From: a virus
Taxonomy: Duplodnaviria > Heunggongvirae > Uroviricota > Caudoviricetes
IMG/VR virus record: IMGVR_UViG_2695420651_000023
Span: 1-14,562 of that record
Strand: one strand, 5' to 3'
Length of the DNA: 14,562 nucleotides
In this document: piece by piece, positions 1 through 14,562 of the stretch
Layout: each line of letters begins with the position of its first letter
Position numbering within the stretch: position 1 is the stretch's first letter
The notes under the pieces: model-generated
Seen by the model: the letters and a program-made list of their open reading frames with translations, nothing else
What the model was told of the DNA's origin: nothing
Database searches by the model: none
Translations under genes and position numbers: made by a program

Positions 1-23
1 GGCAGAAGCAGAAAAAGCTTATT

Positions 24-701
24 ATGCTTCCATCAGAAACGATGATCTGGCAGCCTGAGTTCACAGATAAAACACTCTCCAGGAAAACCGGGGCGGTTCA
101 TTTTGCTGCTCTACTTCCGGGGTTTTTGGCACTCAATAATTCTGTATGGGCAAGTGATTTGCCTGGTATGACTCTTAATGAACATGATTTAGTGATAGCC
201 CCACTTAACACCGAAGTTCCATTCTACATTGCAGGGCATCGCAGTCATAGCTCCCATCGGAGCCATAGTTCTCACCGTTCATCATCAGGTGGCGGGTACT
301 ATGGTGGCAGCACTCCCTATTATCCAAAAACATACAGCTCACCAAGTTCATCTGGGTCTTCAAGTTCAGGAACAAGTCCCTCATCGTCCTCTTCCTCTGT
401 GCGTTCGCTTCGTTCTAACGACAATAACAACTCTACTACTACGAATTCTGTTGGAACTACAGAAGCTAACCGTGCAAGTAATGGGCTGACTTCTGGTACA
501 GAGAAGCGTAAGCGCTTAATCATGCGGGTTCAATTCGCTTTGCTGGACAAAGATTATTACAACGGGAATATTGACGGCATAATGGGGCCTTCCACAAGGC
601 AGTCAATAAAAAATTATCGCATTGCGAACGGACTACCAGTGCCCTCAAGTGAAACCTTGGATATACAGTTGTTAAATTCATTAAGTATTTTAGCTCGATA
701 A
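24..701 (+). CDS. secreted His-Xaa-Ser-repeat protein with Ser-rich linker and C-terminal peptidoglycan-binding (PG_binding_1-like) domain
   Basis: N-terminal hydrophobic stretch AVHFAALLPGFLALNNSVWA followed by SD (signal-peptide-like, AXA-type site). Repeat HRSHSSHRSHSSHRSSS. Long S/T/G/N-rich low-complexity linker. C-terminus DGIMGPSTRQSIKNYRIANGLPV resembles PG-binding domain. Reading frame is open upstream to the window edge, so the true start could be 24, 42, or outside the window. Confidence 0.6.
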   Translation: MLPSETMIWQPEFTDKTLSRKTGAVHFAALLPGFLALNNSVWASDLPGMTLNEHDLVIAPLNTEVPFYIAGHRSHSSHRSHSSHRSSSGGGYYGGSTPYYPKTYSSPSSSGSSSSGTSPSSSSSSVRSLRSNDNNNSTTTNSVGTTEANRASNGLTSGTEKRKRLIMRVQFALLDKDYYNGNIDGIMGPSTRQSIKNYRIANGLPVPSSETLDIQLLNSLSILAR

Positions 702-769
702 ATTAAGTATATTAAAAATTTTTCACTTTAACATTAACTTGTATGAATATATATTTCAGAGGCGATTAA

Positions 770-2581
770 ATGTCAGTCAGCTATAACATATATAGAATGC
801 CATATAAGAGTCTTCCAGAATTGACAAAAAAAATCATTAAAGAAGGGCTTGTCGAACAAAAAACTATTCTACATCAATCTTATCAACTCAAATTTTATTT
901 TTCTGATAAATTAAAAGGAAATGAAGTATGGTGGTGGGATGTTTTTAGTGATTTCTTCAATGAAGAAATTGAAAAGCCTCATAATATATTCTATTTTGGC
1001 CTGCTAATAGGATTTAAAGAAAAGGACCCTGAGAATTGCTATCTTATCAGTCTTGGTAAATCACATTTTTATCTCAGCAAGTTTATTGAAGCAGACTTTG
1101 GGCTGAATGTGGCAATGCGTATAGCTAATGATGAAAATATTTTACTCAAGAAAAGCAGATTCTTTTGTGGGGGAAAGAGTCAGGAGGCATCCTCATACTC
1201 ACAGTTTGTTCAAGGAGCATATTTTCCTGGCGAATCCATCGAGCATCTCAAAACAAAAGCCAAAGAAACTGACAAGTGGGGATGTAATAATATAACTTTT
1301 TCTGATTCAATTCAGCTAAGTTTGGATGGTGCTCCTACTGCATTAGTCGATGTTTTCAATGATATTGATTCTTCGTTGGCAACCAAAGAGAAAATCGAAT
1401 TTCCTAAATCGGAAAAAATCACTGACGAGTCAAAGATAGATGAGCTTGATAATTGTCTACTTCAATCGATCATTACAGATGATGCAAAAGTTATTATTGA
1501 TGAGATTCAATCTTTTGGTGCCTCTATTGTAATTAATAATTCTTTGACATTTTTTAAATTGCACACAAAAGTTGAGGGGAGTGGAAAGTATCTTCAATCA
1601 TCAGATAAAATTAATGACATAAAAATAGCAGATGTAAAGAAATTCATAAAAAATAACAACATAAAAGATGTCAATAAAGTTTTTGTTAAGATAACTAATG
1701 AAAATAACAGTGGTCATACAGCCTCGTTAAAAGAAATATTGAGCATTACTTATAGCGAGGGCAGCGAGCACTTCTTCCTTAAGAGGGGAGGATGGAGTCG
1801 ATTTAACTCTGCTTTTATGAAGTATTTGTCTACTTCTTTAGCCAGTATAAAATTTGAGGTTAAAGATGCTCTTAAGGAAGACGACTTCAAAGTATGGCAA
1901 GCTGAAAAAATAAAACAAATCGCAGAAGGAACTTCTAAAGACAAATTAGAATATAGAGAATATTATTTTAATGAAAAGATGTCTGATGAGAAAGGTTATA
2001 TACTTCTAGATCGCCAGCTAAAAAAAATACCATCCTTACGTGATAATGGCAAGGACTACAATGTTGAAGTTGCAGATCTTTATAAAAATGGAGAGATTAT
2101 TGCTGTAAAGATATCAGATAAACCGCATGATCTAATTTATAATATTGAACAGTCAAAAACCACAATTCAAACTATAGTAAGAGGAGTAGTAAAATTTGAA
2201 GAGACAATTACTGATGTGGTTTTATGGATCTCAACTACTACAAAAGCTAAAAAATTAATTGACATCAATTCTATTCAATTTTTATTAGCGGTTCAAACTT
2301 GGAAGGAAGTTGTTGAAGGATTTAATCTGAAACCAAAGATATATTATTCACATCACGATAAACCCCAAAAGAAAAAGGGAAAGAAAAAAACGCATCTTAA
2401 ATCTGAACTTAGAATTGGTTATGGAGAAAGATATCAGGTTATAGCGTCTCAGTATCGCTCCAATATTTGTGTGGATTATGTATCACCGATACTACCAAAA
2501 TTATTATGTTTTAGGTATGGTGATTTACCGCCATACCTCTTTTGTATTTATCTCGCAATGATGTTGTTTACTTTTGTTTAA
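770..2581 (+). CDS. hypothetical protein, 603 aa, AT-rich orphan; candidate defence/abortive-infection protein
   Basis: Long uninterrupted ORF with SD GAGG 7 nt before the ATG. K/N/I-rich composition and very low GC. No TM segments and no catalytic motif (Walker A, HNH, RT YxDD) recognisable by eye. Confidence 0.7.
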   Translation: MSVSYNIYRMPYKSLPELTKKIIKEGLVEQKTILHQSYQLKFYFSDKLKGNEVWWWDVFSDFFNEEIEKPHNIFYFGLLIGFKEKDPENCYLISLGKSHFYLSKFIEADFGLNVAMRIANDENILLKKSRFFCGGKSQEASSYSQFVQGAYFPGESIEHLKTKAKETDKWGCNNITFSDSIQLSLDGAPTALVDVFNDIDSSLATKEKIEFPKSEKITDESKIDELDNCLLQSIITDDAKVIIDEIQSFGASIVINNSLTFFKLHTKVEGSGKYLQSSDKINDIKIADVKKFIKNNNIKDVNKVFVKITNENNSGHTASLKEILSITYSEGSEHFFLKRGGWSRFNSAFMKYLSTSLASIKFEVKDALKEDDFKVWQAEKIKQIAEGTSKDKLEYREYYFNEKMSDEKGYILLDRQLKKIPSLRDNGKDYNVEVADLYKNGEIIAVKISDKPHDLIYNIEQSKTTIQTIVRGVVKFEETITDVVLWISTTTKAKKLIDINSIQFLLAVQTWKEVVEGFNLKPKIYYSHHDKPQKKKGKKKTHLKSELRIGYGERYQVIASQYRSNICVDYVSPILPKLLCFRYGDLPPYLFCIYLAMMLFTFV

Positions 2582-2984
2582 GTCTTCTAAGCTTCATACT
2601 TTCTAATGAGAATAATAATAGAGTTGTGCTGTATATAAAACCAGAGTTAGTTAATAACTTTAAATTTAATGCTTCAGGATTTTCACTGAGAAAATGAAAG
2701 GCATAAACTAAGTATACAGCTAAAGCAGCCGTTCCAATTGTTGGTCCAATATCGCCTTGATCATGAGGTTCAAGGTTTACATTGAATTTAAAGATTAGCC
2801 ATTCAAATCCCCAAGTAAAAAAAACAACTAATATCATGGCTGCGAATAATTTCGCGATGTTATCTGCTGATGGATTCATCAGAACAGATTGTTTCTGAAA
2901 AAATTCACAAAGTGAGAGTCCGAAAAAAATAAAAAAAAGTGGTCTGGAACTAAATTTTTCAAAAACTTTGAATAGGGTTTCCAT
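2568..2984 (-). CDS. small integral membrane protein, 138 aa, about 4 predicted TM helices
   Basis: Four hydrophobic stretches (LFFIFFGLSLCEFF, AAMILVVFFTWGFEWLIF, IGTAALAVYLVYAFHFL, IYSTTLLLFSL). Starts 38 bp downstream of the int stop on the same strand. Its 3' end overlaps the convergent 603-aa gene by 14 bp. Confidence 0.55.
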   Translation of the reverse strand: METLFKVFEKFSSRPLFFIFFGLSLCEFFQKQSVLMNPSADNIAKLFAAMILVVFFTWGFEWLIFKFNVNLEPHDQGDIGPTIGTAALAVYLVYAFHFLSENPEALNLKLLTNSGFIYSTTLLLFSLESMKLRRLKQK

Positions 2985-3022
2985 TTTCTTTACCTTCAGG
3001 ATTATATTAGCTATTCTGATAC

Positions 3023-4252
3023 TTAGGCTACCAGAGCATTTGATCTTTGAGCTTGAACGTAATCACTCCACCATTGCATCAAACTCTGTCGCTCTATCAG
3101 ATATTCTGCACGATTGTATGCTGCGATAATTTCATCTTTTTTCGAGTGGGCAAGCGCTGCCTCAAGAACTTCAGCTCTGAATTTACCAGACTCCTCTGCC
3201 GCTGTTCGCGCAATAGAACGCATACCGTGAGCTACAAGCTCGCCTCCGAACCCCATTCGGATGATAGCTGCGTTGGCTGTTTGTTCATGCATATGATTAA
3301 GAGGCGCTTTAATGCTGGGGAAAACCCATTCTCTATGCCCACTTATTGATTTCATTAATTCAAGGATGCGCAAAGCTTCTTTACTCAAAGGAACTTTGTG
3401 AGGCTTTTTCATTTTCATGAAATCAGCAGGAATGTTCCAAATGCTGTTGGTTGTATCAATATCAGACCATCTTGCGCGAACGGCTTCACCCGGACGAACC
3501 CATGTCAACAATTGCCATTCAATTAGCATACGTGTTTCCAACCGGATTGACGCATTCGTCAAAGATTCCATAAACCTTGGCAATTCGCTTGGGGGAAGGG
3601 CAGGCATATTTTGCTTTTTTGGTTTACTGAATCTTTGACCAAGGTTGTCAGCCGGGTTGAACTCAATAAGTTCTTCAGTAGCTGCCCACCTGAAGATTTC
3701 ATTCAGACGTGAAATGATACGGCGTAGAGTTTCCAATACGCCTCGTTGCTTAATAGGATCAAGGTGTTGTTTTAAGAGCTTAGGCCGGATCTCATTGATA
3801 GGGACATTACCCAGACCAGGAAAGACATTTCTCTCTAAGCTGCGCCAGATGTCTGCTGCATGGTCTTGTGAGATACCTGATGTCTTTACCTTCTCATCTA
3901 ACCATTTCCGCGCTACGGCTTGGAGAGTGTGCTCAGTAGCACTCTTTAATGCCTTCGCCTTATCGTTGTTATGGATTTGTGGATCAACACCATTTGCCAG
4001 AAAGGAAAGATATTCATCACGTAAGGCTCTGGCTCTTGCCAGTGTAAGGTGAGGATAGGTCCCAAGGCTCATTTTGGTTCTTTTTTTACTCACTGGCACT
4101 GCATACCTGAAATACCAATTCTTCTTTCCTCCTTTCGAGAGGGGAGCGATTCGTAGTATCAAACCATCTCCGTCAAACAAGTTGATTTCTTTGTCGGCTG
4201 GCTTGGTGCTTTTGATTTCAGTGTCAGTGAGCTTCTTAGCGATTTTTGCCAT
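3023..4252 (-). CDS. int: tyrosine recombinase, P4-family integrase (N-terminal arm-binding domain)
   Basis: N-terminus MAKIAKKLTDTEIKSTKPADKEINLFDGDGLILRI...WYFRY is typical of P4/CP4-57 IntA-type integrases. Start moved from 4294 to the ATG at 4252, which has SD GAGGG 7 nt upstream. C-terminal catalytic region contains R...H..R and a Tyr-containing segment. Confidence 0.9.
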   Translation of the reverse strand: MAKIAKKLTDTEIKSTKPADKEINLFDGDGLILRIAPLSKGGKKNWYFRYAVPVSKKRTKMSLGTYPHLTLARARALRDEYLSFLANGVDPQIHNNDKAKALKSATEHTLQAVARKWLDEKVKTSGISQDHAADIWRSLERNVFPGLGNVPINEIRPKLLKQHLDPIKQRGVLETLRRIISRLNEIFRWAATEELIEFNPADNLGQRFSKPKKQNMPALPPSELPRFMESLTNASIRLETRMLIEWQLLTWVRPGEAVRARWSDIDTTNSIWNIPADFMKMKKPHKVPLSKEALRILELMKSISGHREWVFPSIKAPLNHMHEQTANAAIIRMGFGGELVAHGMRSIARTAAEESGKFRAEVLEAALAHSKKDEIIAAYNRAEYLIERQSLMQWWSDYVQAQRSNALVA

Positions 4253-4349
4253 TTTGGGACCCTCGGTTTTTGGACCCTTCTTAGTGGGTCTCATTCAGGG
4301 TGCCATAACTCGTAGTTCTCAGCAATTCTCACTGGACGACAATAGACGT

Positions 4350-4381
4350 AAAAAAGCCCGCAGAGCTTGTGCTGTGCGGGC
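4350..4381 (-). terminator. rho-independent terminator on the minus strand, between the ssrA fragment and int
   Basis: Plus strand reads AAAAAA + GCCCGCAGAGC + TTGT + GCTGTGCGGGC (11-bp stem, one mismatch). On the minus strand this is hairpin followed by TTTTTT. Confidence 0.5.
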
Positions 4382-4417
4382 TTAGTAGACTTCATTGTAC
4401 TTCAAACAACTAAAAAG

Positions 4418-4464
4418 TGGTGGAGCTGGCGGGAGTTGAACCCGCGTCCGAAATTCCTACATAC
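4418..4464 (-). repeat. ssrA: 3'-terminal ~47 nt of ssrA (tmRNA), att core repeat; not a complete tmRNA gene
   Basis: Reverse complement reads ATGTAGGAATTTCGGACGCGGGTTCAACTCCCGCCAGCTCCACCA, the acceptor/T-arm end of enterobacterial tmRNA as I recall it. Sequence further upstream (4465 onward) is unrelated to tmRNA. Confidence 0.8.
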
Positions 4465-4612
4465 CATTTTTACCATAACAAAAACATTAAGTTTCGTTTA
4501 AAATCAGTCTGTTATTGTTATTTTGTGTTTGTCCGTTTTACGCTTTTTTAATGTTCTGCCGCCAAAATGCCGCCACATTGTAGGTATTAAGTCTGCTATT
4601 TATCACCTGTTG

Positions 4613-5509
4613 TTAAGACACGCGGGCATCGTACCCATACAAGTCTTGAAAGCATGAGTAAAACAATTCTTGATTGTTGAGTTCGCCCTTTGTTTCCGGT
4701 ATTTCACTCTGTAGAAAATTTTTATTAATTGTCCACTCAATAGCTAAAGTATTAGTGTAGTTTGTTGAACTACTAATTTTAGCATTATTAGGATGAAAAA
4801 GTTGCTGTATAAATTCAATATCTGAATCAAGTGAAATAAAATGTATGTTTGCATTATCTTTTAATCTATCATCAAATCTAAGTTGGATAGTGGTTTTGTA
4901 ATGATTAAAATCAGCAATTGGGTTATAAGATGAAAAATTTTTACTTTTAAATTTTAATATCTTCTCAGCTCGTTGGCTTCCAAAGATATACATCAGAGCT
5001 ACAATTGTAAACGGTTGGTTTTTAAATTCATTAAACTCGTTTACTATCTCTTTAAACTCATAATATGTATTCTCTCGTTGTTCTACTTTCTTTGTTTCCC
5101 CTATTTTTTCTTGTAGCTTATCAAGGAATTTTGTTTTTTTATCTATTAATCTGTCAGTTTCTTTTTCATATATTATTTTTGATAGTTTATTTACATTGGA
5201 TGTTAGGAAATCATAATCAGTGTTAGCTTCTTTAATAAATGATTTTACAATTTCACTATCCTCTATAATTAATTTTCTTATTTTTTTATTAGGTGTTTTT
5301 ATGATTTCTAATTTGCCGTTACTGTCAAGTTTTTTATGGGTTTTTCCTTCTATTATTGATAGTAAAGGTGAGAAAGTATTTCCTTTGATATCTAATGCTT
5401 TTAATTTATTAAGCATATCAATTCTATTAGGTTCTGGGATATTAGAAGAATTGTTGTGCTTATTCATTAGATCAATTATGTTTCGATCTAAAAGGTAGAG
5501 CTCTGTCAT
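4613..5509 (-). CDS. hypothetical protein, 298 aa, AT-rich moron between prophage int and att
   Basis: ORF begins 12 bp downstream of the int stop on the same strand. K/N/I/E-rich, very low GC. No TM segments or recognisable motifs. Confidence 0.7.
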   Translation of the reverse strand: MTELYLLDRNIIDLMNKHNNSSNIPEPNRIDMLNKLKALDIKGNTFSPLLSIIEGKTHKKLDSNGKLEIIKTPNKKIRKLIIEDSEIVKSFIKEANTDYDFLTSNVNKLSKIIYEKETDRLIDKKTKFLDKLQEKIGETKKVEQRENTYYEFKEIVNEFNEFKNQPFTIVALMYIFGSQRAEKILKFKSKNFSSYNPIADFNHYKTTIQLRFDDRLKDNANIHFISLDSDIEFIQQLFHPNNAKISSSTNYTNTLAIEWTINKNFLQSEIPETKGELNNQELFYSCFQDLYGYDARVS

Positions 5510-5521
5510 AATAATTACCTT

Positions 5522-6547
5522 TTAATTAGTAGAAAAAAGAGTGGCTAAAGGATTTTTTGTCACCGCATCTTCAAGATGCTCTGGTGCGAAATGAGCATAA
5601 ATCATGGTCATTTTTATATCGGTATGGCCTAAAATTTCTTTAAGCACAAGTATATTACCGCCATTCATCATAAAGTGGCTGGCGAATGTATGGCGTAGCA
5701 CGTGGGTGCATTGTCCTTCTGGCAGTTCGATACCGGCCCGCTTTACTGCCCGCTCAAAGGCTTTTCTGCATGGTGTGAATAATTTCCCTCTATTTTTGGG
5801 AAGTTCGTCATACAGATCCTGAGATATTGGCACGGTACGGTTTTTCTTGCCCTTCGTCTTGGTGTATGTGATGCGGTATTTTGACAACTGGTGTCCCTGC
5901 AGATTTTCTGCTTCACTCCAGCGTGCTCCGGTGGCCAGGCATATTTTTGCAATCATCAGCAGGCTGGGGCTTTGAGAATCTGCGCAGGCATCCAACAGGC
6001 GCTTGATTTCGTCCATGGAAAGAAAGGCCAGCTCACCTTCAGCAATTTTAAATGTAGGAAGTCCTGCCAGTGGGTTTGGTGCTGACCAGTGTCCCAGCTT
6101 TTTCAGTGTGCCAAAAACCGATGACAGGTTGCGTTGTTCAAGATTTACCGTGCGGGGCTTAACAGGCGACATAAGCGCGCCATCTTCATTTCGCACTTCA
6201 CCCTTTAGCCGTGCTTCCCGGTATTTCGTAAAATCACCGGCGGTCAGTTCTGAAGCGATGGGATCGCCCAGACCATTACAGATAATTTTAAGTTTCGCCA
6301 TCAGGCGTTTGGGGTCAGCAAGCGTCTGCCCGTAAAGTGAGTACCATTGTTCAATCACTTCTGACAAATGTCGCCGATCTTCCTTTTCCCCCAGCCACGG
6401 TTTTTTGTTCACTTCTTCCATTGTGAAACGTTCAAACGCAATGGCTTCGCCTTTTGTCGCAAATTGTTTACGTACGCGTTTGCCATCTCGCCCGTTTGGG
6501 TAGCATTCACACAACCACTTTCCGTTCGGCTGTTTTCTGATCGTCAT
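5522..6547 (-). CDS. int: tyrosine integrase, P2/186 family
   Basis: N-terminus MTIRKQPNGKWLCECYPNGRDGKRVRKQFATKGEAIAFE resembles P2 Int. C-terminal HVLRHTFAS...GH...IYAH catalytic box. Start lies 2 bp after the cI stop. Confidence 0.9.
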   Translation of the reverse strand: MTIRKQPNGKWLCECYPNGRDGKRVRKQFATKGEAIAFERFTMEEVNKKPWLGEKEDRRHLSEVIEQWYSLYGQTLADPKRLMAKLKIICNGLGDPIASELTAGDFTKYREARLKGEVRNEDGALMSPVKPRTVNLEQRNLSSVFGTLKKLGHWSAPNPLAGLPTFKIAEGELAFLSMDEIKRLLDACADSQSPSLLMIAKICLATGARWSEAENLQGHQLSKYRITYTKTKGKKNRTVPISQDLYDELPKNRGKLFTPCRKAFERAVKRAGIELPEGQCTHVLRHTFASHFMMNGGNILVLKEILGHTDIKMTMIYAHFAPEHLEDAVTKNPLATLFSTN

Positions 6548-6549
6548 TA

Positions 6550-7182
6550 TTAGATGCTCTTAATCACTTTTACCACACGCCCTACAACGGCTACGTCATC
6601 AACTGCACATTCAAAGGTTGTTTCTTCCTGATGAACAACAAGCTTATTTCCGGGAATTCGAGCTACTTTTACGATGCTTTTCACTCCATCAATATCAACA
6701 AGCCAAGAGCCATTACTGATCTGTTTTACAGATACATCAACAATAAAACTTTCTGTTGTCGTTTGTATGAATAGATAGTTTGACGAATCGCCCTCAACCA
6801 ACCTGCTATCTAATAAAATTTCGTCATATGATTGAAGTTCACCATTTCTTAATTCTGTGTATTTGATACTGGGAGCTACGATTTTAGAAAGTGGTCTAAT
6901 TGTGACGTCATTATCATTTTTGAGAATGTTTGAGTCACAGTTATCTGCATACATATCACCCTGTCCGGTTGCCAACCAAAGAAGCGAGATCCCGGTTTCT
7001 AGAGCACATTGAATTACCCACTCTGCTGGAAAGCTATCTCTTAAGTATCTGTTTGCCATGGTGCTTTTAGATACTTTTAAGTGTTCGCAGAGTTGTTGGC
7101 GTGAGCTGAAATTGTAGGCTTTTATCAGCCTGTTGATGGCATCACGCCCCCCACTATCGTTTCCACCCTTGATTAGACTCAT
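6550..7182 (-). CDS. cI: CI-type immunity repressor (186-like), N-terminal HTH
   Basis: Start moved from 7314 to the ATG at 7182 (MSLIKGGN...), which has a G-rich SD. HTH-like segment QQLCEHLKVSKSTMANRYL. Sits immediately upstream of int and divergent from the apl-like gene. Confidence 0.75.
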   Translation of the reverse strand: MSLIKGGNDSGGRDAINRLIKAYNFSSRQQLCEHLKVSKSTMANRYLRDSFPAEWVIQCALETGISLLWLATGQGDMYADNCDSNILKNDNDVTIRPLSKIVAPSIKYTELRNGELQSYDEILLDSRLVEGDSSNYLFIQTTTESFIVDVSVKQISNGSWLVDIDGVKSIVKVARIPGNKLVVHQEETTFECAVDDVAVVGRVVKVIKSI

Positions 7183-7300
7183 AATCAAACCCCCCCTGAC
7201 GCATATAAAATGAGATCTTAATATCCATTCATGGTTTGAAAAGCAAAACCAAACCACATAAAACGAGATGATACGATTACAAACTAAGAGATACTGCACT
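7183..7300. promoter_or_regulatory. lysis/lysogeny switch region between cI and the apl-like gene (promoters and operators)
   Basis: 118-bp AT-rich divergent intergenic region. Inverted repeat TGGTTT-N8-AAACCA at 7232..7251. TTGAAA hexamer at 7236..7241. Confidence 0.4.
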
Positions 7301-7549
7301 ATGAGCAACGACATTTCAATTCGTGTACCAAAAGTGATGGCGACACCAGCTGAGTTCGCGGAATGGGAAGGCCGCTCTCGCGGTTCGGTATATCAAATGA
7401 TTCATAATGGAAAACTCGCTAAATTCTTGGAAAGAAAAGAAAAACCGAAAGACAGAGTATGTATACGTTACCTTGAGTACAAAAAGGAACAAGTCAGGAA
7501 AAACATGGGCCAATCCAATTTCAACTTTAATGTCATCGTTGGTGACTAA
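7301..7549 (+). CDS. Apl/Cox-like small HTH protein (excisionase/transcriptional repressor)
   Basis: 82 aa; HTH-like segment ATPAEFAEWEGRSRGSVYQMIHNGKL. First rightward gene opposite cI. Start choice (7301 versus 7268 or 7337) is uncertain. Confidence 0.55.
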   Translation: MSNDISIRVPKVMATPAEFAEWEGRSRGSVYQMIHNGKLAKFLERKEKPKDRVCIRYLEYKKEQVRKNMGQSNFNFNVIVGD

Positions 7550-7581
7550 GTTCAATTATGAGAACTTTCTAAGGGGGCAGC

Positions 7582-8091
7582 ATGTTTGATTACAAGATTT
7601 CCAAACATCCGCATTTTGATGAAGCCTGTAGAGCTTTTGCACTACGTCACAATATGGCGAAGCTGGCAGAACGTGCAGGAATGAATGTTCAGACACTGCG
7701 AAACAAACTCAACCCAGATCAACCGCATCAGCTCACCGCATCAGAAATCTGGCTGCTTACCGATCTGACTGAAGATTCAACGCTGGTAGATGGTTTTCTG
7801 GCACAGATTCACTGCCTGCCATGTGTACCGATTAATGAGGTAGCAAAAGAGAAACTGCCGCATTACGTCATGAGTGCAACCGCAGAGATCGGGCGTGTTG
7901 CTGCAGGTGCGGTATCTGGCGATGTAAAAACCAGTGCAGGTCGTCGTGATGCTATCAGCAGCATTAACTCTGTAACACGACTGATGGCGCTGGCTGCTGT
8001 TTCATTGCAGGCCCGTTTACAGGCTAACCCTGCGATGGCGAGTGCAGTTGATACCGTGACTGGCCTCGGTGCTTCATTCGGATTGCTGTGA
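7582..8091 (+). CDS. cII: CII-like regulatory protein (186 CP76 family)
   Basis: 169 aa, the same length as 186 CII as I recall it. Sits immediately after the apl-like gene with a G-rich SD. Confidence 0.55.
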   Translation: MFDYKISKHPHFDEACRAFALRHNMAKLAERAGMNVQTLRNKLNPDQPHQLTASEIWLLTDLTEDSTLVDGFLAQIHCLPCVPINEVAKEKLPHYVMSATAEIGRVAAGAVSGDVKTSAGRRDAISSINSVTRLMALAAVSLQARLQANPAMASAVDTVTGLGASFGLL

Positions 8092-8265
8092 GGTGCTTAT
8101 GCTGACGAAAGAACCATCATTTGCATCGCTGCTGGTAAAACAAAGTCCGGCAATGCACTACGGTCACGGCTGGATCATGGGTGAGGATGGTAAACGCTGG
8201 CATCCATGTCATTCACAAGATGAATTGCTGTCTGAATTGACCACGAGGAAACGGAGAAAGTCAAA

Positions 8266-8490
8266 ATGTATGCAGCGGAAAGTGAAGTGGTTTATCAGTT
8301 TCGTTACAGAGGGGAGAGTTATTCAGTACCTGAAGATGATTTGCTCTGTTGTTATCCGTCGTTGTCGGGCGATGGCAGTTACTTTTTCACGCTAAAGGAT
8401 GGGACGTTTTTACGGGGAGAGCAGGTTAAAGAGACGATACGAAAAAATGTATCTCCTCTTGAACGTTACCGTAAGAACAAAGAACGATAG
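8266..8490 (+). CDS. hypothetical early protein, 74 aa
   Basis: Good SD (GGAG, about 9-nt spacer). Protein-like composition. Overlaps an alternative ORF at 8099..8395 in another frame. Confidence 0.45.
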   Translation: MYAAESEVVYQFRYRGESYSVPEDDLLCCYPSLSGDGSYFFTLKDGTFLRGEQVKETIRKNVSPLERYRKNKER

Positions 8491-8512
8491 TTGCGTTTTG
8501 GGGATATGAATT

Positions 8513-8854
8513 ATGGCAATTAATGGCGCTGCGGCGACTGTTCCATTAAGCCCCGGTGAACGCCTGAATGGACTTAATCATATTGCGGAATTAAGGGCGA
8601 AAGTTTTTGGCCTGAATATTGAGTCAGAGCTTGAGCGGTTTATTAAAGATATGCGTGATCCACGGGATATCAATAATGAACAAAATAAACGGGCACTGGC
8701 TGCTATATTCTTTATGGCAAAAATTCCAGCTGAACGTCATAGCATCAGCATTAATGAGCTGACCACTGACGAAAAGCGGGAGCTGATTAAAGCAATGAAT
8801 CATTTTCGTGCGGTGGTGAGCTTATTTCCCAGACGGCTAACCATGCCGAATTAA
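8513..8854 (+). CDS. hypothetical phage early protein, 113 aa
   Basis: ATG with GGGGA SD. Balanced composition. Sits in the early operon. Confidence 0.55.
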   Translation: MAINGAAATVPLSPGERLNGLNHIAELRAKVFGLNIESELERFIKDMRDPRDINNEQNKRALAAIFFMAKIPAERHSISINELTTDEKRELIKAMNHFRAVVSLFPRRLTMPN

Positions 8855-8921
8855 CCAACTAATGAAATTAATGGCGTAAACCCGCCGGGCATCCCTTTAT
8901 CTAAATTCAGGAGAATTGATT

Positions 8922-9155
8922 ATGCGTAATATTGAAATCCTCACGACTAAAACCGGACCGGATGATGCAGGGCTTAATATTTTACTGACAGAGGCTCGTC
9001 TGGAAGAACGCCGGGCAAGGGCTGAAGCAATGGCAGCTCGCCTTGATAGCCTGGCGTGTCATATCTCATCCCGTCAGCTAAACCACGTGGAAGCGGCAGA
9101 ACTGCTGCGTGTGACTGCTGAAGCAATCCAGAACGAAGCGCAGGAGATCCACTAA
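8922..9155 (+). CDS. hypothetical phage early protein, 77 aa
   Basis: Start taken at the ATG at 8922 (SD CAGGAG, 8-nt spacer) rather than the TTG at 8916. Stop overlaps the next gene's start (TAATG). Confidence 0.55.
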   Translation: MRNIEILTTKTGPDDAGLNILLTEARLEERRARAEAMAARLDSLACHISSRQLNHVEAAELLRVTAEAIQNEAQEIH

Positions 9156-9382
9156 TGGCTGATGCAATGGATCTCGTACAGCAGCGCGTTGAAGAAGAAC
9201 GCCAGCGCTATATCCGTGCTGCCCGTGCCAAAACACCGGGCGTGTCTCGTGTGCTTTGTATTGAATGTGAAGCGCCAATTCCGCCAGCACGACGCCGCGC
9301 CATTCCTGGAGTGCAGCTTTGCATTACCTGTCAGGAAATCGCAGAGCTGAAAGGCAAACATTACAACGGAGGTGTTGTATGA
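9155..9382 (+). CDS. TraR/DksA-family C4 zinc-finger protein
   Basis: CIECEAPIPPARRRAIPGVQLCITC gives Cys-x2-Cys-x17-Cys-x2-Cys. Translationally coupled to both neighbours. Confidence 0.75.
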   Translation: MADAMDLVQQRVEEERQRYIRAARAKTPGVSRVLCIECEAPIPPARRRAIPGVQLCITCQEIAELKGKHYNGGVV

Positions 9383-10236
9383 GTACCATCCTGAAATGGG
9401 CGGGAAATAAAACCGCCATTATGTCCGAACTGAAAAAACATCTTCCTGCTGGCCCGCGACTGGTTGAACCTTTCGCGGGTTCCTGTGCTGTGATGATGGA
9501 GACGGATTACCCCAGCTATCTTGTTGCGGATATTAATCCTGATTTAATCAACCTCTATAAAAAGGTTGCTGCTGATTGCGAGGCGTTTATATCTCGTGCC
9601 AGAGCTTTATTTGAGGAAGCAAACAGGGAGGTGGCTTATTACAACATAAGGCAGGAGTTTAATTACTCCACTGAAATTACTGATTTCATGAAAGCGGTAT
9701 ATTTCCTGTATCTCAATCGTCATGGTTACCGTGGGTTATGTCGCTATAACAAGAGCGGGCATTTCAACATTCCGTACGGTAATTATAAAAATCCGTATTT
9801 CCCTGAAAAAGAAATTCGCGCATTTGCAGAGAAAGCCCAGCGGGCAACGTTTATCTGCGCCAGCTTTGATGAAACGCTGGCGATGTTGAAGGCGGGGGAT
9901 GTGGTGTATTGCGATCCGCCTTATGACGGTATGTTTTCCGGCTATCACACTGACGGCTTCACTGAAGATGACCAGTATCACCTGGCATCCGTTCTTGAAC
10001 ATCGGTCATCAGAAGGACATCCGGTCATTGTTTCTAACAGTGACACATCCCTGATCCGTTCGCTGTATCGCAATTTTACTCACCACTACATCAAGGCAAA
10101 ACGCAGCATCGGCGTGGCAGCTGGTGAGAGTAAATCTGCAACAGAAATCATCGCTGTTTCCGGGCCGCGCTGCTGGGTAGGATTTGATCCTTCGCGTGGC
10201 GTGGATTGTTCCGTCGTGTACGGAGTGCGTGCATGA
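9379..10236 (+). CDS. dam: DNA adenine methyltransferase (Dam-like, N6-adenine, GATC-type)
   Basis: Strong similarity to E. coli Dam as I recall it: [37 protein letters not shown] (motif IV DPPY). Start at 9379 (SD GGAGGTG) overlaps the upstream stop (ATGA). Confidence 0.9.
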
Positions 10237-12647
10237 GCCATGCTGATATGAACAACTGCAGCGGCTTTAACGAGTTCGCCGCAGCATTCTCATGGAACAG
10301 CCCGAAAAAGGCCATTAACCCTTATCTGGACCCGGCGGAAGTTGCGCCGGTTTCTGCGCTTTCAAACCTGATCACTCTGTACGCTGCCGATAACGAGCAG
10401 GAACAACTGCGCCGCGAGGCACTGAGTGATCAGGTCTGGGAGCGTTATTTCTTTAATGAATCCCGTGATCCTGTCCAGCGCGAAATGGAACAGGATAAGC
10501 TCATTAGTCGGGCAAAGCTGGCGCATGAGCAGCAGCGTTTTAATCCGGATATGGTCATTCTGGCGGACGTCAACGCCCAGCCTTCCCATATCAGCAAGCC
10601 GCTGATGCAACGTATTGAATACTTCAGCAGCCAGGGCAGGCCAAAGGCTTATTCCCGCTATTTACGTGAGACGATTAAGCCATGTCTGGAACGGCTGGAG
10701 CATGTACGCGACAGTCAGCTATCCACTTCTTTTCGCTTTATGGCAAGCCATGAAGGGCTGGACGGCCTGCTGATTCTGCCTGAAATGAGTCAGGATCAGG
10801 TGAAACGCCTGTCCACCCTTGTTGCTGCGCATATGAGCATGTGCCTTGATGCAGCTTGTGGCGATTTGTATGCCACCGATGACGTTAAGCCAGAAGAAAT
10901 CCGCAAGACATGGGAAAGGGTGGCGGCGGAAACCCTGCGTCTGGATGTCATCCCACCTGCGTTTGAGCAACTCCGCCGGAAAAGAAACCGCCGTAAACCC
11001 GTGCCCTATGAACTCATTCCGGGTTCGCTGGCGCGTATGTTGTGCGCCGACTGGTGGTATCGGAAATTATGGAAGATGCGTTGCGAATGGCGGGAGGAGC
11101 AGTTGCGCGCTGTCTGCCTGGTTAGCAAAAAAGCATCTCCTTATGTCAGCTATGAAGCCGTGATGCATAAACGTGAGCAGCGCCGTAAGTCGCTGGAGTT
11201 TTTCCGTTCTCATGAACTGGTGAACGAAGACGGCGACACGCTGGACATGGAGGATGTGGTAAACGCCAGCAGCAGCAACCCTGCGCATCGCCGCAATGAG
11301 ATGATGGCCTGTGTTAAAGGTCTGGAGCTTATCGCGGAAATGCGCGGTGACTGCGCCGTTTTCTACACCATCACCTGTCCGTCACGTTTCCATTCCACGC
11401 TAAATAACGGCAGGCCCAACCCAACCTGGACAAATGCGACGGTAAGACAAAGTAGTGATTATCTGGTCGGCATGTTTGCTGCATTTCGTAAGGCGATGCA
11501 CAAAGCCGGATTGCGCTGGTATGGCGTGCGGGTGGCTGAGCCGCATCATGACGGTACAGTTCACTGGCACCTGTTGTGTTTTATGCGCAAAAAAGACCGC
11601 CGCGCCATCACTGCATTACTGCGTAAGTTTGCCATCCGTGAAGACCGCGATGAGCTGGGCAATAACACTGGGCCGCGCTTTAAGTCTGAGTTGATTAACC
11701 CGCGCAAAGGTACGCCAACAAGCTACATCGCGAAATACATCAGTAAGAACATTGACGGGCGTGGTCTGACTGGCGAGATCAGCAAGGAAACGGGGAAATC
11801 CCTGCGTGATAATGCTGAATACGTTAATGCCTGGGCGTCTCTGCATCGTGTTCAGCAATTCCGCTTCTTTGGCATTCCGGGGCGTCAGGCTTACCGTGAA
11901 CTGCGATTGCTGGCTGGTCAGGCGGCAAGGCAACAGGGGGACAAAAAAGCAGGTGCGCCGGTACTGGATAACCCGCGCCTTGATGCAATCCTGGCTGCTG
12001 CTGATGCTGGTTGTTTTGCCACCTACATCATGAAGCAGGGCGGCGTACTGGTTCCCCGCAAATATCACCTGATCAGAACCGCTTATGAAATCAACGAAGA
12101 GCCGACCGCCTATGGCGATCACGGCATTCGTATTTATGGCATCTGGTCACCCATTGCAGAGGGCAAGATCTGCACTCATGCGGTGAAGTGGAAAATGGTT
12201 CGTAAGGCCGTTGACGTTCAGGAGGCGGCAGCCGACCAGGGCGCTTGCGCCCCTTGGACTCGTGGCAATAACTGTCCCCTTGCTGAAAATTTGAACCAAC
12301 AAGGGAAAGACAAATCAGCTGATGGGGATACCAGAACGGAAATCACCCGCATGGATGACAAGGAATTGCACGATTACCTGCACAGTATGAGCAAAAAAGA
12401 GCGCCGGGAACTGGCAGCAAGGTTACGCCTGGTTAAACCGAAACGGCGTAAAGACTACAAACAGCGAATTACAGATCATCAGCGACAGCAGCTCGTCTAT
12501 GAACTGAAGTCCAGAGGATTTGATGGCAGCGAGAAAGAGGTCGATTTACTCCTTCGCGGCGGCAGTATTCCGTCAGGAGCAGGCCTGCGTATCTTCTATC
12601 GGAACCAGCGTCTGCAGGAGGATGATAAATGGCGGAACCTGTATTAA
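10233..12647 (+). CDS. replication initiation endonuclease, P2/186 gene A family (rolling-circle, HUH-type)
   Basis: HUH-like motif [13 protein letters not shown] and twin-tyrosine motif [10 protein letters not shown] (phiX174 gpA / P2 A type YxxKY). Start at 10233 overlaps the dam stop (ATGA). 804 aa. Confidence 0.85.
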
Positions 12648-12741
12648 TTACGCAGGTTAACAATTCGTGCTCTTAATAATACCAGGCATATCAGGCTGAT
12701 GAGCGTAAAAAAACGTTTTACATCAGTAAGATTATTATATG

Positions 12742-12757
12742 CTGTAAATATAAACAG
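12742..12757. promoter_or_regulatory. LexA (SOS) box upstream of the tum/dinI-like operon
   Basis: CTGTAAATATAAACAG matches the CTGT-N8-ACAG consensus. Lies 43 bp upstream of the ATG at 12800, with a TATACA -10-like hexamer just downstream. Confidence 0.6.
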
Positions 12758-12799
12758 TGGTTATGTATACAGTGTTGCTTTGGTGTCATAGGAGGAAAG

Positions 12800-12988
12800 A
12801 TGCAGGACTATTTTTTGGAGTCTTTGAAGCTCCAGCGCATTGATTTTTTTCTTAAGCTTGTAGCGGCTAGTGAGTGTAGTGATGAAGAGAAGGGGCTGGC
12901 CCTGCAGTGGGTTTCTGAACTGACAGATGAACTCATGGCAAAAATCAGAACCCACGAATACAACCGCTCAATGGATGTCATCAGCTGA
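12800..12988 (+). CDS. small SOS-operon protein, 62 aa; candidate Tum-like antirepressor (N-terminal part)
   Basis: AGGAGG SD 6 nt upstream. First gene after the LexA box. Position corresponds to 186 tum. Confidence 0.5.
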   Translation: MQDYFLESLKLQRIDFFLKLVAASECSDEEKGLALQWVSELTDELMAKIRTHEYNRSMDVIS

Positions 12989-12998
12989 GGTGACTTTT

Positions 12999-13232
12999 AT
13001 GCGCATTGAAATAATGATCGATAAAGAGCAGAAGATTAGCCAGTCTACCCTGGACGCTCTGGAGTCAGAGCTTTACCGCAACCTGCAACCCATCTATCCC
13101 AAGACAGCTATCCGCATCCGTAAAGGGTCGGCAAACGGCGTTGAGCTGAGTGGCTTAAAGCTTGATGAAGACAAAAAGCGGGTGATGGAAATTATGCAGC
13201 AGGTTTGGGAAGACGACAGCTGGCTGCACTAA
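12999..13232 (+). CDS. DinI-family protein, 77 aa
   Basis: MRIEIMIDK...LDALESEL...DEDKKRVMEIMQQVWEDDSW aligns by eye with E. coli DinI (MRIEVTIAK...IDALAGEL...KEDKQRISEILQETWESADDW). Start at the ATG at 12999 with SD GAGGTG. Confidence 0.8.
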   Translation: MRIEIMIDKEQKISQSTLDALESELYRNLQPIYPKTAIRIRKGSANGVELSGLKLDEDKKRVMEIMQQVWEDDSWLH

Positions 13233-13305
13233 GGAACGTTCCTGATGTAAGAACTTGATTCTGACGTCAGCAAGGTTGAACAACGAGAGTAGCGAGGCGT
13301 TAGCC

Positions 13306-13566
13306 ATGGGTAAAAAAGACAGTAATCACCAGATTATTTATCGGGGCCAGGTGCTGGAACGGTTTACCCCTGGCGGCTGGGTCTTCTTTCAACGCCCAAA
13401 GGAGTGTGGCGGAGGTTTTTGGTTGGGCCGCACCTATGAAGACTGCTTCTGGCTTGAGCTGGAATTCCCCGTTTCGCTATATGACGGCCTGGAGTTTTTG
13501 ATGGAAGTCACCAGGGTAGAGCAGAGAAGTGATGAGGTTGACGCGAATTATTCCCTGTTTGATTAA
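13306..13566 (+). CDS. hypothetical protein, 86 aa
   Basis: ATG at 13306 with GAGG SD; the track's upstream extension uses a TTG start. No recognisable motifs. Confidence 0.5.
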   Translation: MGKKDSNHQIIYRGQVLERFTPGGWVFFQRPKECGGGFWLGRTYEDCFWLELEFPVSLYDGLEFLMEVTRVEQRSDEVDANYSLFD

Positions 13567-13585
13567 AAATGTATTAGCTTATAAT
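13559..13585 (+). promoter_or_regulatory. sigma70-like promoter for the 203-aa gene
   Basis: -35 TTGATT (13559..13564), 15-bp spacer, perfect -10 TATAAT (13580..13585), about 30 bp upstream of the ATG at 13615. Confidence 0.45.
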
Positions 13586-13614
13586 GGAATACTATTTTTG
13601 CAGGTGGGGGCGCA

Positions 13615-14226
13615 ATGGATTTAGTCTTTAAAATTCTGGCTTCGTTGGGTGGGGTGTCTTTTGTTGCATCTGGCATATTTGTTTGGATCGGGAAAGTTTA
13701 TTTAGAAAGATATAAGTCGCGGCTAAACAAAGATATTGCTGAATTTCAATCACAACTGAGTGCAACTAATGAAAGAATAAAGGCTAAGTTAGACAATTCT
13801 GTTTATGTAACGAAAGCGTATTTTGATAAGGAGTTATCAGCATATAGTCTCATTTGGAATTCGATGTTTGAAACCAGAGAAAGCGTGCTTAAGCTGAGGC
13901 CTGCGCTGGATCATTTTGACCCCAACGAACCATTTGAAGAGAGAAAATTTAGAAGGTTGAAAGTTTTTTTCGATGCATTTAATACTTTTGTTACAAGTGT
14001 TGAGTCTAACAAACCGTTCATCTCACCAGAGGTTTATATAATCTTGGACCGTTTCCGGAAGGAATGCCTTTCAGAGTCAATATCGTTTCAGCATGGCGAT
14101 CCAGAATTTGACTGGCAAAATTATTGGAAAGAGGCAGAGTTGAACCGTACAACCATCACCAAGCTTTTTGATGAGACGTGTGATGCAATTCGAGACAGGA
14201 TGCACACATTAACTGTGGTTACGTAG
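13615..14226 (+). CDS. membrane-anchored hypothetical protein, 203 aa (single N-terminal TM helix); candidate defence moron
   Basis: N-terminal hydrophobic helix ILASLGGVSFVASGIFVWIG, then a charged/coiled-coil-like region. Own promoter and strong SD AGGTGGGGG. Lower GC than the phage core. Confidence 0.7.
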   Translation: MDLVFKILASLGGVSFVASGIFVWIGKVYLERYKSRLNKDIAEFQSQLSATNERIKAKLDNSVYVTKAYFDKELSAYSLIWNSMFETRESVLKLRPALDHFDPNEPFEERKFRRLKVFFDAFNTFVTSVESNKPFISPEVYIILDRFRKECLSESISFQHGDPEFDWQNYWKEAELNRTTITKLFDETCDAIRDRMHTLTVVT

Positions 14227-14317
14227 TTTTCCAAAAAGTCTCGATGCCCGCTTTGGCGATTGTGCATGTCTATGCCGCATGAATCCGCATGATCGTTTGA
14301 GGATCGTTTTAGCTGAG

Positions 14318-14341
14318 GCCCGCTAGGAATGGCGGGCTTTT
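14318..14341 (+). terminator. rho-independent terminator
   Basis: GCCCGC + 8-nt loop TAGGAATG + GCGGGC, followed by TTTT. Confidence 0.55.
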
Positions 14342-14386
14342 GCTTATGTCATGCAGGCGCATGAAAACCACTACATAAAGCGGGCA

Positions 14387-14405
14387 GGCGTGGCGGGGAT
14401 ACGAG
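14387..14405. other. cos-like site (P2/186-type cohesive end)
   Basis: GGCGTGGCGGGGATACGAG resembles the 19-nt P2/186 cohesive end (GGCG[A/T]GGCGGGGA...) as recalled from memory. Position between the early region and the expected late genes fits the P2 map. Confidence 0.35.
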
Positions 14406-14562
14406 CGCGCGCTCATGGTTGAATTAATGAAATTATGGTGTTAAATAGGCTAGCTTTTGGTGATGCTGCCAACTTACTGATTTAGTGTATGATGGTGTTT
14501 TTGAGGTGCTCCAGTGGCTTCTGTTTCTATCAGCTGTCCCTCCTGTTCAGCTACTGACGGGG

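Follow-up and report, generated by a model that had tools for sequence, protein, structure and literature searches.

In phage 186, an SOS operon lies between gene A and the cos site in the order p95/LexA site, tum, t95a, orf97, t95b, cos, with p95 and its LexA site annotated from experiments. In Fels-2 and PSP3 the tum gene is split in two, and the upstream half has antirepressor activity in PSP3 (Lemire 2011, PMC3121763). The Gifsy-1, -2 and -3 prophages carry a LexA box followed by a dinI homologue, a small open reading frame (ORF) of ~70-90 amino acids (aa) and an ORF of ~200 aa, the small gene being located outside the immunity region (PMC3121763). In P2-like phages, the gpA-gpQ interval is a variable hotspot (Rousset et al. 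2022, PMC9122126; a 2026 Nucleic Acids Research study, PMC13586616), with cargo such as tin, old and many defence systems (PMC9122126). SOS-controlled prophage genes set when and how prophages leave their host, and they tie antibiotic and macrophage stress to phage production and gene transfer. Here we describe ORF86, an 86-codon ORF found in a stretch of 14,562 nucleotides (nt), referred to below as the window (IMG/VR record IMGVR_UViG_2695420651_000023, positions 1 to 14,562), which can be assigned to a Fels-2/186-like prophage of the P2 family. ORF86 is placed between a dinI-like gene and a gene for a 203-aa protein.

The window resembles 186 in the location of the operon between gene A and cos, the LexA-boxed promoter, the DinI-like domain (the window dinI product and the Tum C-terminal half share 43% identity), the terminator just before cos, the presence of a variable extra gene downstream of tum/dinI, and a shared hairpin-plus-box element. 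It differs from 186 in that orf97 (243 aa) is unrelated to ORF86 and precedes the hairpin, whereas the cargo of the window follows it, and in that no t95a-type terminator is found after the window dinI. The first gene of the window operon, hp62, is 98.4% identical to the Fels-2 product and is a probable Fels-2/PSP3-type antirepressor, i.e. the upstream half of a split tum; its homology to the N-terminal half of 186 Tum was rejected, as BLASTP gives no alignment between them. In respect to the Gifsy prophages, the gene order and the position of the small gene are alike, whereas neither the pair of ORF86 and the Gifsy-1 antirepressor nor the 203-aa/irsA pair shows detectable similarity and the ~200-aa gene of the window is expressed independently of SOS. 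ORF86 also resembles the DinI/PsiB modulators, which are small, acidic, LexA-regulated and encoded by mobile elements, and it adjoins dinI in P2-like phages; the Pfam DinI model does not match it, however, and its predicted fold is another one. Finally, ORF86 occupies the same locus as the P2 gpA-gpQ cargo, and its arrangement is catalogued there, but it is silent in the resting lysogen, has no match among the defence models, and is found outside P2-like phages as well, with a LexA promoter of its own.

Taken as a whole, the best explanation (with a probability of roughly 0.8) is that ORF86 is a stand-alone, LexA-controlled accessory gene of temperate enterobacterial phages, a member of the PHROG 2100 family, carried as distal cargo of the SOS operon, whose product would bind a host target. 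ORF86 joins the known class of LexA-controlled prophage genes, and an uncharacterised, widespread family now has a clear, testable regulatory signature. A part of the P2 defence hotspot is thereby placed inside an SOS transcription unit, behind a structured RNA, which bears on the expression and exchange of cargo.

LexA control and position in the SOS operon

The window contains a single CTGT-N8-ACAG sequence, located 43 nt upstream of hp62 (Table 2), and no terminator-like site was found in the interval between dinI and ORF86. The P2-like copies of ORF86 have no box of their own and lie downstream of the LexA-boxed hp62/dinI operon; an exact box upstream of the operon is present in 13 of the 17 P2-like loci, and in the majority of these it falls between -544 and -584 relative to the ATG of ORF86. 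One P2-like locus (L014) has a different arrangement, in which ORF86 carries its own box and is the only LexA-boxed gene after gpA.

Outside the P2-like phages the box moves next to the gene. In 18 of the 21 non-P2 loci (SSU5-like phage-plasmids, P22-like and other prophages), an exact CTGT-N8-ACAG with an AT-rich spacer precedes the ATG by 26-74 nt, with most boxes between -32 and -36, and several of these loci show a -35-like TTGAC further upstream. By our own calculation (4^-8 per position over ~60 nt), about 0.001 boxes per locus would be expected by chance. The predicted boxes place the ORF86 family under LexA/SOS control. The original prediction that ORF86 may be the last gene of the SOS operon is supported by the sole upstream box, the lack of a terminator before ORF86, the strong terminator hairpin that appears only at 14315-14345, the corresponding p95-tum-orf97 layout of 186, the boxed non-P2 homologues, and the co-induction seen in RNA sequencing (RNA-seq).

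Expression in E. coli LF82

Positions 12650-14354 of the window are 99.9% identical to Escherichia phage Cartapus, a P2/Fels-2-like prophage of E. coli LF82, for which RNA-seq data were published (PMC9928086, S1 Table; GSE154648). The values are given as log2 of fragments per kilobase per million reads (log2FPKM) for two replicates of each condition (Table 1). BLB is the stationary phase in LB and MB6 the macrophage 6 h after infection; MB1 was taken as macrophage 1 h.

Table 1. Published expression (log2FPKM, replicate 1/replicate 2) of Cartapus genes in E. coli LF82.
Gene	BLB	B6	MB1	MB6
gpA	2.46/2.52	2.77/2.83	2.65/2.42	2.83/2.86
hp62	4.16/4.55	4.08/4.71	9.78/10.04	10.97/10.85
dinI	2.93/3.12	3.61/3.76	7.93/7.88	9.18/9.29
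ORF86	3.27/3.06	2.84/2.56	4.85/5.21	7.45/7.72
203-aa gene	5.42/5.61	8.62/8.53	8.99/9.04	10.53/10.52

In LB, the phage genes hp62, dinI and ORF86 are all silent. ORF86 is up ~20-fold in macrophages at 6 h, alongside hp62, the phage dinI, the host dinI and the host sulA, with gpA remaining flat. The macrophage is a genotoxic, SOS-inducing environment according to the authors of the data (PMC9928086). Since ORF86 rises with hp62 and dinI while gpA does not, it behaves as the distal, ~three-fold attenuated gene of the SOS operon, outside the lytic programme. The three-fold drop of RNA from dinI to ORF86 is compatible with attenuation or processing.

In the same data, no Cartapus gene is induced more strongly in macrophages than hp62, yet gpA and the late genes remain silent, so that the antirepressor candidate is expressed with no visible lytic transcription.

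ORF86 as a gene and a protein family

ORF86 was correctly delimited from the outset, with the ATG, the TAA stop codon and the translation as quoted in the original prediction, and a Shine-Dalgarno sequence, GAGG, stands 8 nt ahead of the ATG. The protein has a mass of 10.2 kDa and an isoelectric point of 4.7, and contains 3 Trp, 2 Cys and 8 Phe residues. The earlier statement that no family can be identified for it is correct in the case of Pfam, NCBIfam and PADLOC, all of which were scanned with no match, but not for PHROG, as residues 1-84 align to positions 1-84 of the 85 in the profile of phrog_2100, a family of no assigned function (E 4.8e-40). A Pfam scan of 36 homologues gave no match either, and DinI (PF06183) was found in 0 of the 36 even at E <= 10.

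Homologues form 64 clusters in a set of 5.8 billion proteins, while an exhaustive profile search of 1.84 billion representatives gave 105 clusters at 50% identity. Nearly all of them are stand-alone proteins of ~85 aa (<=130 aa) from Enterobacterales. Among the 105 clusters, all members are <=128 aa except for one weak match (E 1.7e-4) within a 2051-aa protein, which was taken as spurious; no credible fusion is present, and the domain context is uninformative. The family shares the core YRG...W-FFQRPKECGGG[YF]WLG[RK], in which Y12, R13, F28, K32, G36, G37, G41 and F48 are invariant, and the window copy keeps all the invariant residues. Between homologues, the proportion of differing synonymous sites (pS) is 0.67-0.89, i.e. 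saturated, while that of non-synonymous sites (pN) is 0.17-0.40. The ratio of non-synonymous to synonymous rates (dN/dS) is 0.15 in comparison with Citrobacter and 0.07 with Trabulsiella, which have the nearest intact copies. ORF86 is a real gene under purifying selection, and it is intact in the window.

The AlphaFold2 model of ORF86 (mean predicted local distance difference test, pLDDT, of 82) consists of four strands and a C-terminal helix. A Foldseek search with this model against the PDB and BFVD gave nothing at E <= 0.001, with best template modelling (TM) scores of about 0.4-0.5, and a sequence profile search of the PDB with ORF86 gave no match. One UniRef cluster of the family (P0057) is labelled DUF2829, i.e. 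Tad2-like; this identity was rejected, as it is absent from the Pfam scan of the 36 members, the PDB profile search and the Foldseek search. A literature search for the accessions, phrog_2100 or SSU5_103 returned no paper.

The RNA element ahead of ORF86

The original prediction pointed to two short perfect palindromes upstream of ORF86 as possible protein-binding sites or a small hairpin. The first, GGAACGTTCC, is found at 13233-13242, as given, and extends to the 12-mer AGGAACGTTCCT (13232-13243). The second, TGACGTCA, is located at 13262-13269 and not at 13260-13267, and extends to the 10-mer CTGACGTCAG (13261-13270). Perfect palindromes occur in the window at chance level (10-bp, 15 observed versus 14-16 expected; 8-mers, 38 versus 57-61; 12-mers, 2 versus 3.6), and neither of the two is kept as a palindrome in related phages, for which reasons they were rejected as significant sites. 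A hairpin does exist at this place, but it is a larger, conserved stem-loop of the phage backbone RNA to which both palindromes are incidental, being accidents of the version of the stem found in the lineage of the window.

The 73 nt from the stop codon of dinI to the ATG of ORF86 belong to the phage backbone and not to the cargo. Among 88 distinct P2-like sequences, the stem is paired in 93.8% of the cells of the alignment, in comparison to 31-48% after a shift of the partner by 1-3 columns. Compensatory double changes are found at 14 of the 18 stem pairs (260 cells), a value reached by 0 of 500 shuffles. The abundance of G-U pairs indicates that the folding strand is the + (sense) strand. 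The 88 sequences were collected with a search pattern of the invariant box that follows the stem, so that the invariance of the box in this set is there by construction, which does not apply to the stem statistics. The window sequence alone folds unremarkably (z = -0.64), and the evidence for the hairpin is for this reason comparative and not thermodynamic. A covariance model of the element matches P2/186-like loci only, and Rfam gives no match for positions 12600-14460 at E <= 1.

The box ends 2 nt ahead of the ATG of ORF86. It is unchanged at 11 of 12 loci that were found independently, and it has more than 120 exact matches in IMG/VR. In phage 186 (L044, 3839-3916), the hairpin and box are found after orf97 and ahead of t95b. 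The element thus precedes the cargo in Cartapus-type phages and follows it in 186, which indicates that cargo can be inserted on either side. The hairpin-plus-box can be described as a predicted structured RNA, conserved and unannotated, at the end of the P2/186-like SOS operon and at the edge of the cargo slot.

Three other descriptions of the element were rejected. An intrinsic terminator is not consistent with the absence of a U tract. A part of cos is not consistent with the distance to that site, which is ~1.1 kb here and ~0.25 kb in 186. A coding leader (a 103-aa ORF with a TTG start at 13255) is contradicted by the length of the N4 spacer, which varies between 3 and 5 nt, by the covariation of the RNA stem and by the presence of the element where no ORF follows.

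The 203-aa gene

ORF86 had also been proposed to be a partner of the 203-aa gene, which is contradicted by the occurrence of ORF86 alone, by the intact 203-aa gene beside broken copies of ORF86 and by the transcription of the 203-aa gene without SOS. Among 33 species-representative loci with ORF86 and 111 usable P2-like loci from IMG/VR, none contains the 203-aa gene; 35 of the latter (about a third of the sample) carry ORF86. The closest relatives of ORF86 (80-86% identity) precede other cargo, namely Abi_2-like, AIPR or DUF4145 genes. Conversely, an intact 203-aa gene persists beside nonsense, frameshifted or truncated copies of ORF86, and at the non-E. coli 203-aa loci examined ORF86 is always decayed, having frameshifts and stops or only its last 75 bp left. 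The breakage of the ORF between conserved neighbours speaks against the partnership, though not against ORF86 as a gene.

The 203-aa protein has an N-terminal transmembrane helix, is coiled-coil-like and belongs to no curated family. Its gene is rare, being found in 52 of 5426 E. coli genomes, and is listed as a moron expressed 7x above background in LB (PMC9928086). Compared with the WP8-type allele, it has 12 nt differences, which amount to 8 amino-acid changes, with dN/dS of about 0.5. Its high expression in B6, where the SOS operon is off, implies a promoter of its own. A putative promoter, TTGATT-15 nt-TATAAT, was read from the sequence over the stop codon of ORF86 (Table 2); the consensus promoter scanner skipped it because of the 15-nt spacer. 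The last ~70 bp of ORF86 together with this stretch always accompany the 203-aa gene, also at loci that have lost the remainder of ORF86, and the retained tail of ORF86 is probably the promoter of the 203-aa gene.

Every E. coli copy of ORF86 with >=90% identity sits 48 nt upstream of the 203-aa gene, and a linkage at the DNA level is seen even in Enterobacter and Citrobacter. Such an arrangement might be expected if the two genes formed one system, e.g. a regulator or antitoxin with a membrane effector. We consider this highly improbable, as ORF86 is found without the 203-aa gene in 33 of 33 species loci, in the 35 P2-like loci from IMG/VR, in phages and on 448 plasmids, the 203-aa gene is intact beside ORF86 pseudogenes or just the last 70-75 bp of ORF86, and the expression programmes of the two differ; the reading is already contradicted. 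The 203-aa gene is an independent moron, a second cargo gene separate from ORF86, and would be expressed constitutively.

Decay of ORF86

A premature stop codon at position 15 (Q15*) is a frequent lesion of ORF86 in E. coli. At least 21 of the 41 genomes that have the locus carry it, and their dinI and 203-aa genes are intact. The TAG allele was seen in L008, and the same 84-bp allele is 100% identical in the 21 genomes. The change is C to T at the inner C of a Dcm site that overlaps codon 15 (CCAGG to CTAGG, CAG to TAG). Compared with the LF82 allele, the Q15* allele has 1 nonsense, 6 non-synonymous and 2 synonymous changes, a spectrum which points to relaxed selection. The last 70 bp of ORF86 are found alone in 11 further E. 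coli genomes.

CCAGG is a hotspot for amber mutations through deamination of the 5-methylcytosine made by Dcm. The same TAG recurs in the Citrobacter loci L057-L059, which suggests that Q15* in E. coli and Citrobacter is a recurrent hotspot mutation and not one ancestral event.

Proposed role of ORF86

Homologues of ORF86 occupy accessory positions in many unrelated temperate phages. In the P2-like phages of Klebsiella, Citrobacter, Enterobacter, Raoultella and Pantoea they come straight after dinI, in P22-like Salmonella phages they adjoin xis-int, and Serratia phages have them in early-left operons. Others are found at prophage ends after tail-fibre genes, or ahead of the small terminase gene. 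The family is also present in 448 plasmid records, the majority of which are non-mobilisable and have a size of ~105-115 kb, in line with SSU5/pHCM2-like phage-plasmids of Klebsiella, Enterobacter, Salmonella and E. coli. ORF86 is the sole gene from dinI to cos in several species loci and in Klebsiella phage ST13-OXA48phi12.1. The same conserved core is present in the P2-like, P22-like, SSU5-like and other backbones.

In SSU5 (L004, 2501-3607) and SSU5-like plasmids, the LexA-boxed homologue of ORF86 is followed by a DUF1380 gene and small ORFs on the same strand. This set may be an SOS-inducible operon, in elements for which no induction switch is described in the literature found.

Our best guess is that ORF86 encodes an SOS-induced binder of a conserved host target. 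ORF86 is the first cargo gene of the gpA-gpQ hotspot, 2 nt after the backbone RNA element, which gives its ribosome-binding site. In an undamaged lysogen, the LexA-repressed operon of hp62, dinI, hairpin and ORF86 is silent. Upon DNA damage LexA is inactivated and the operon transcribed, and roughly one third of the transcripts, judged by RNA-seq, would pass the hairpin into ORF86. The 10-kDa acidic protein with its predicted four strands and helix would then bind a target common to all its phage backgrounds, possibly a conserved component of the host that takes part in the damage response or in induction (e.g. RecA, LexA, or a factor of repair, division or defence), as DinI and PsiB do. A host target is favoured over the cognate repressor because the family is LexA-controlled, small, acidic and unfused across unrelated immunity modules.

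Several points weigh against this explanation. No sequence or fold relative of known function was found for ORF86, and the step to a host target is drawn from distribution only. No exact LexA box is present in 3 non-P2 and 4 P2-like loci. The induction was seen in macrophage infection and not with a pure SOS inducer or in a lexA(Ind-) comparison, and the counts are per gene, so that the co-transcription of hp62, dinI and ORF86 is deduced from them and not mapped. Roughly 8 of the 33 species loci have a disrupted ORF86, and this frequent loss, together with the Q15* genomes and the decayed copies outside E. coli, argues that ORF86 is dispensable; the intact copy in the window could be on its way out. 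If ORF86 were merely a dispensable accessory gene, it would still be separated from the 203-aa moron, and Q15* would still be explained as a Dcm-site mutation.

The main rival is an antirepressor, a functional analogue of Tum, GfoA/GfhA/GftA, N15 AntC or SPC32H Ant, which would be produced under LexA control, act on the cognate or a co-resident repressor and trigger induction. The published description of this class, as small LexA-controlled genes outside the immunity region (PMC3121763), fits ORF86, which is found in the gpA-cos region or at prophage ends and has its own LexA box in many phages, in the case of L014 as the sole boxed gene after gpA. The Gifsy order (LexA box, dinI, antirepressor, irsA of ~200 aa) mirrors that of dinI, ORF86 and the 203-aa gene, a striking resemblance. 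However, BLASTP aligns ORF86 with the Gifsy-1 antirepressor over just 13 residues (E 0.39), the 203-aa protein shows no relation to the irsA homologue, and there is no Gifsy, 186 or N15 record among the tblastn matches and no sequence or fold match in the PDB. The missing homology is weak evidence, as the known antirepressors are mutually unrelated (polyphyletic). The same core occurs across very different immunity systems. P22-like SE1 is annotated with a LexA-family repressor of the self-cleaving type, which should need no antirepressor, and Cartapus, as a Fels-2/186-like phage of the antirepressor-dependent type, already has the Fels-2-type candidate hp62. With half of the E. coli carriers also having a nonsense allele, we regard an antirepressor as unlikely.

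A binder of a host target can also be weighed against a role in defence. In this case ORF86 would be anti-defence or defence (superinfection-exclusion) cargo of the hotspot, and LexA would merely time its expression to induction. Small acidic early proteins often inhibit host immunity, and the neighbours of ORF86 homologues in other phages are defence-like (AAA+RloB, Abi_2, AIPR, TIR and DUF4145). ORF86 itself is found in a documented defence hotspot, where it is listed as 'hypothetical' (PMC9122126 supplement; PMC13586616). The PADLOC 2.0 defence models match neither ORF86 nor the 203-aa protein, hp62 or DinI, and the Tad2-like label of the family was not reproduced, as described above. A typical prophage defence gene is expressed in the uninduced lysogen, as are the adjacent 203-aa and DUF4145 genes, whereas ORF86 is silent there. 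A defence function is, in our estimation, quite unlikely.

A wider interpretation is put forward tentatively, as a possibility at rather long odds. PHROG 2100 may be an unrecognised class of LexA-controlled effectors, common to P2-like, P22-like and SSU5/pHCM2-type elements, that act on a conserved node of the host SOS response or of induction, or as promiscuous trans-acting antirepressors. The hairpin-plus-box may in turn be a new cis-acting RNA that gates read-through from the SOS operon into the defence hotspot of P2 and marks the joint at which recombination swaps the cargo.

Layout of the locus and the cargo slots

Table 2. Positions of the features of the window (numbered from its first nucleotide).
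Feature	Position	Strand	Basis and remarks
gpA	10206-12647		
LexA box CTGTAAATATAAACAG, predicted promoter of the SOS operon (equivalent of 186 p95)	12742-12757	+	CTGT-N8-ACAG
hp62, 62 aa, first operon gene	12800-12988	+	phrog_698 match
dinI-like gene, 77 aa	12999-13232	+	Pfam DinI, E 2e-24
Conserved backbone RNA hairpin, 18 bp, 5-6 nt loop, containing both palindromes	13235-13277	+	covariation
Near-invariant box GTTGAACAACGAG-N4-GCGAGGCGTTAG	13275-13303	+	supplies Shine-Dalgarno GAGG 13294-13297; backbone/cargo junction
ORF86	13306-13566	+	PHROG 2100 match; ATG at 13306, TAA ending at 13566
Cargo block (ORF86 and 203-aa gene) versus empty or other-cargo P2-like loci	13305-14261	+	blastn versus L010, L002, L003
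Dcm site CCAGG over codon 15 (CAG, 13348-13350)	13347-13351	+	
Putative promoter of the 203-aa gene, TTGATT-15 nt-TATAAT, overlapping the ORF86 stop	13559-13585	+	read from sequence
203-aa gene	13615-14226	+	phrog_26391 match only
Intrinsic-terminator-like hairpin and U tract (equivalent of 186 t95b)	14315-14345	+	fold -24.2 kcal/mol, z = -3.3

In blastn comparisons of the window with L010, L002 and L003, the backbone homology stops at 13303/13304 and restarts at 14262. It is followed by a cos-proximal block (14262-14412) which is conserved in all P2-like loci and includes the terminator-like hairpin. The match to Cartapus runs to the end of its linear record, which corresponds to the cos site at ~14354. 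The exact arrangement is catalogued in the supplement of PMC9122126 as hypothetical + DinI + WP_000516592 + WP_000366628 + DUF4145, where WP_000516592 is ORF86 and WP_000366628 the 203-aa protein, and it is listed there as 'hypothetical'.

The window ends with a part of IS1 (GGTGATGCTGCCAACTTACTG...) which starts at 14459, ~100 bp beyond cos, and extends to 14562. In the LF82 reference and in strain WP8-S17-ESBL-05, a DUF4145 gene is found in place of this IS1 end. The presence of IS1 instead of DUF4145 indicates that the prophage of the window is closely related to that of LF82 but has IS1 inserted in a second cargo slot between cos and gpQ. Such a second variable slot is seen after the conserved cos block and before the portal gene Q in L002, L007, L010, L045, L046 and L050-L054, where it holds TIR, SEFIR, DUF4145, AAA+RloB, AIPR or RVT_1 genes. 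With cargo on either side of cos, the gpA-gpQ hotspot is really two slots, and the SOS transcription unit covers only the first.

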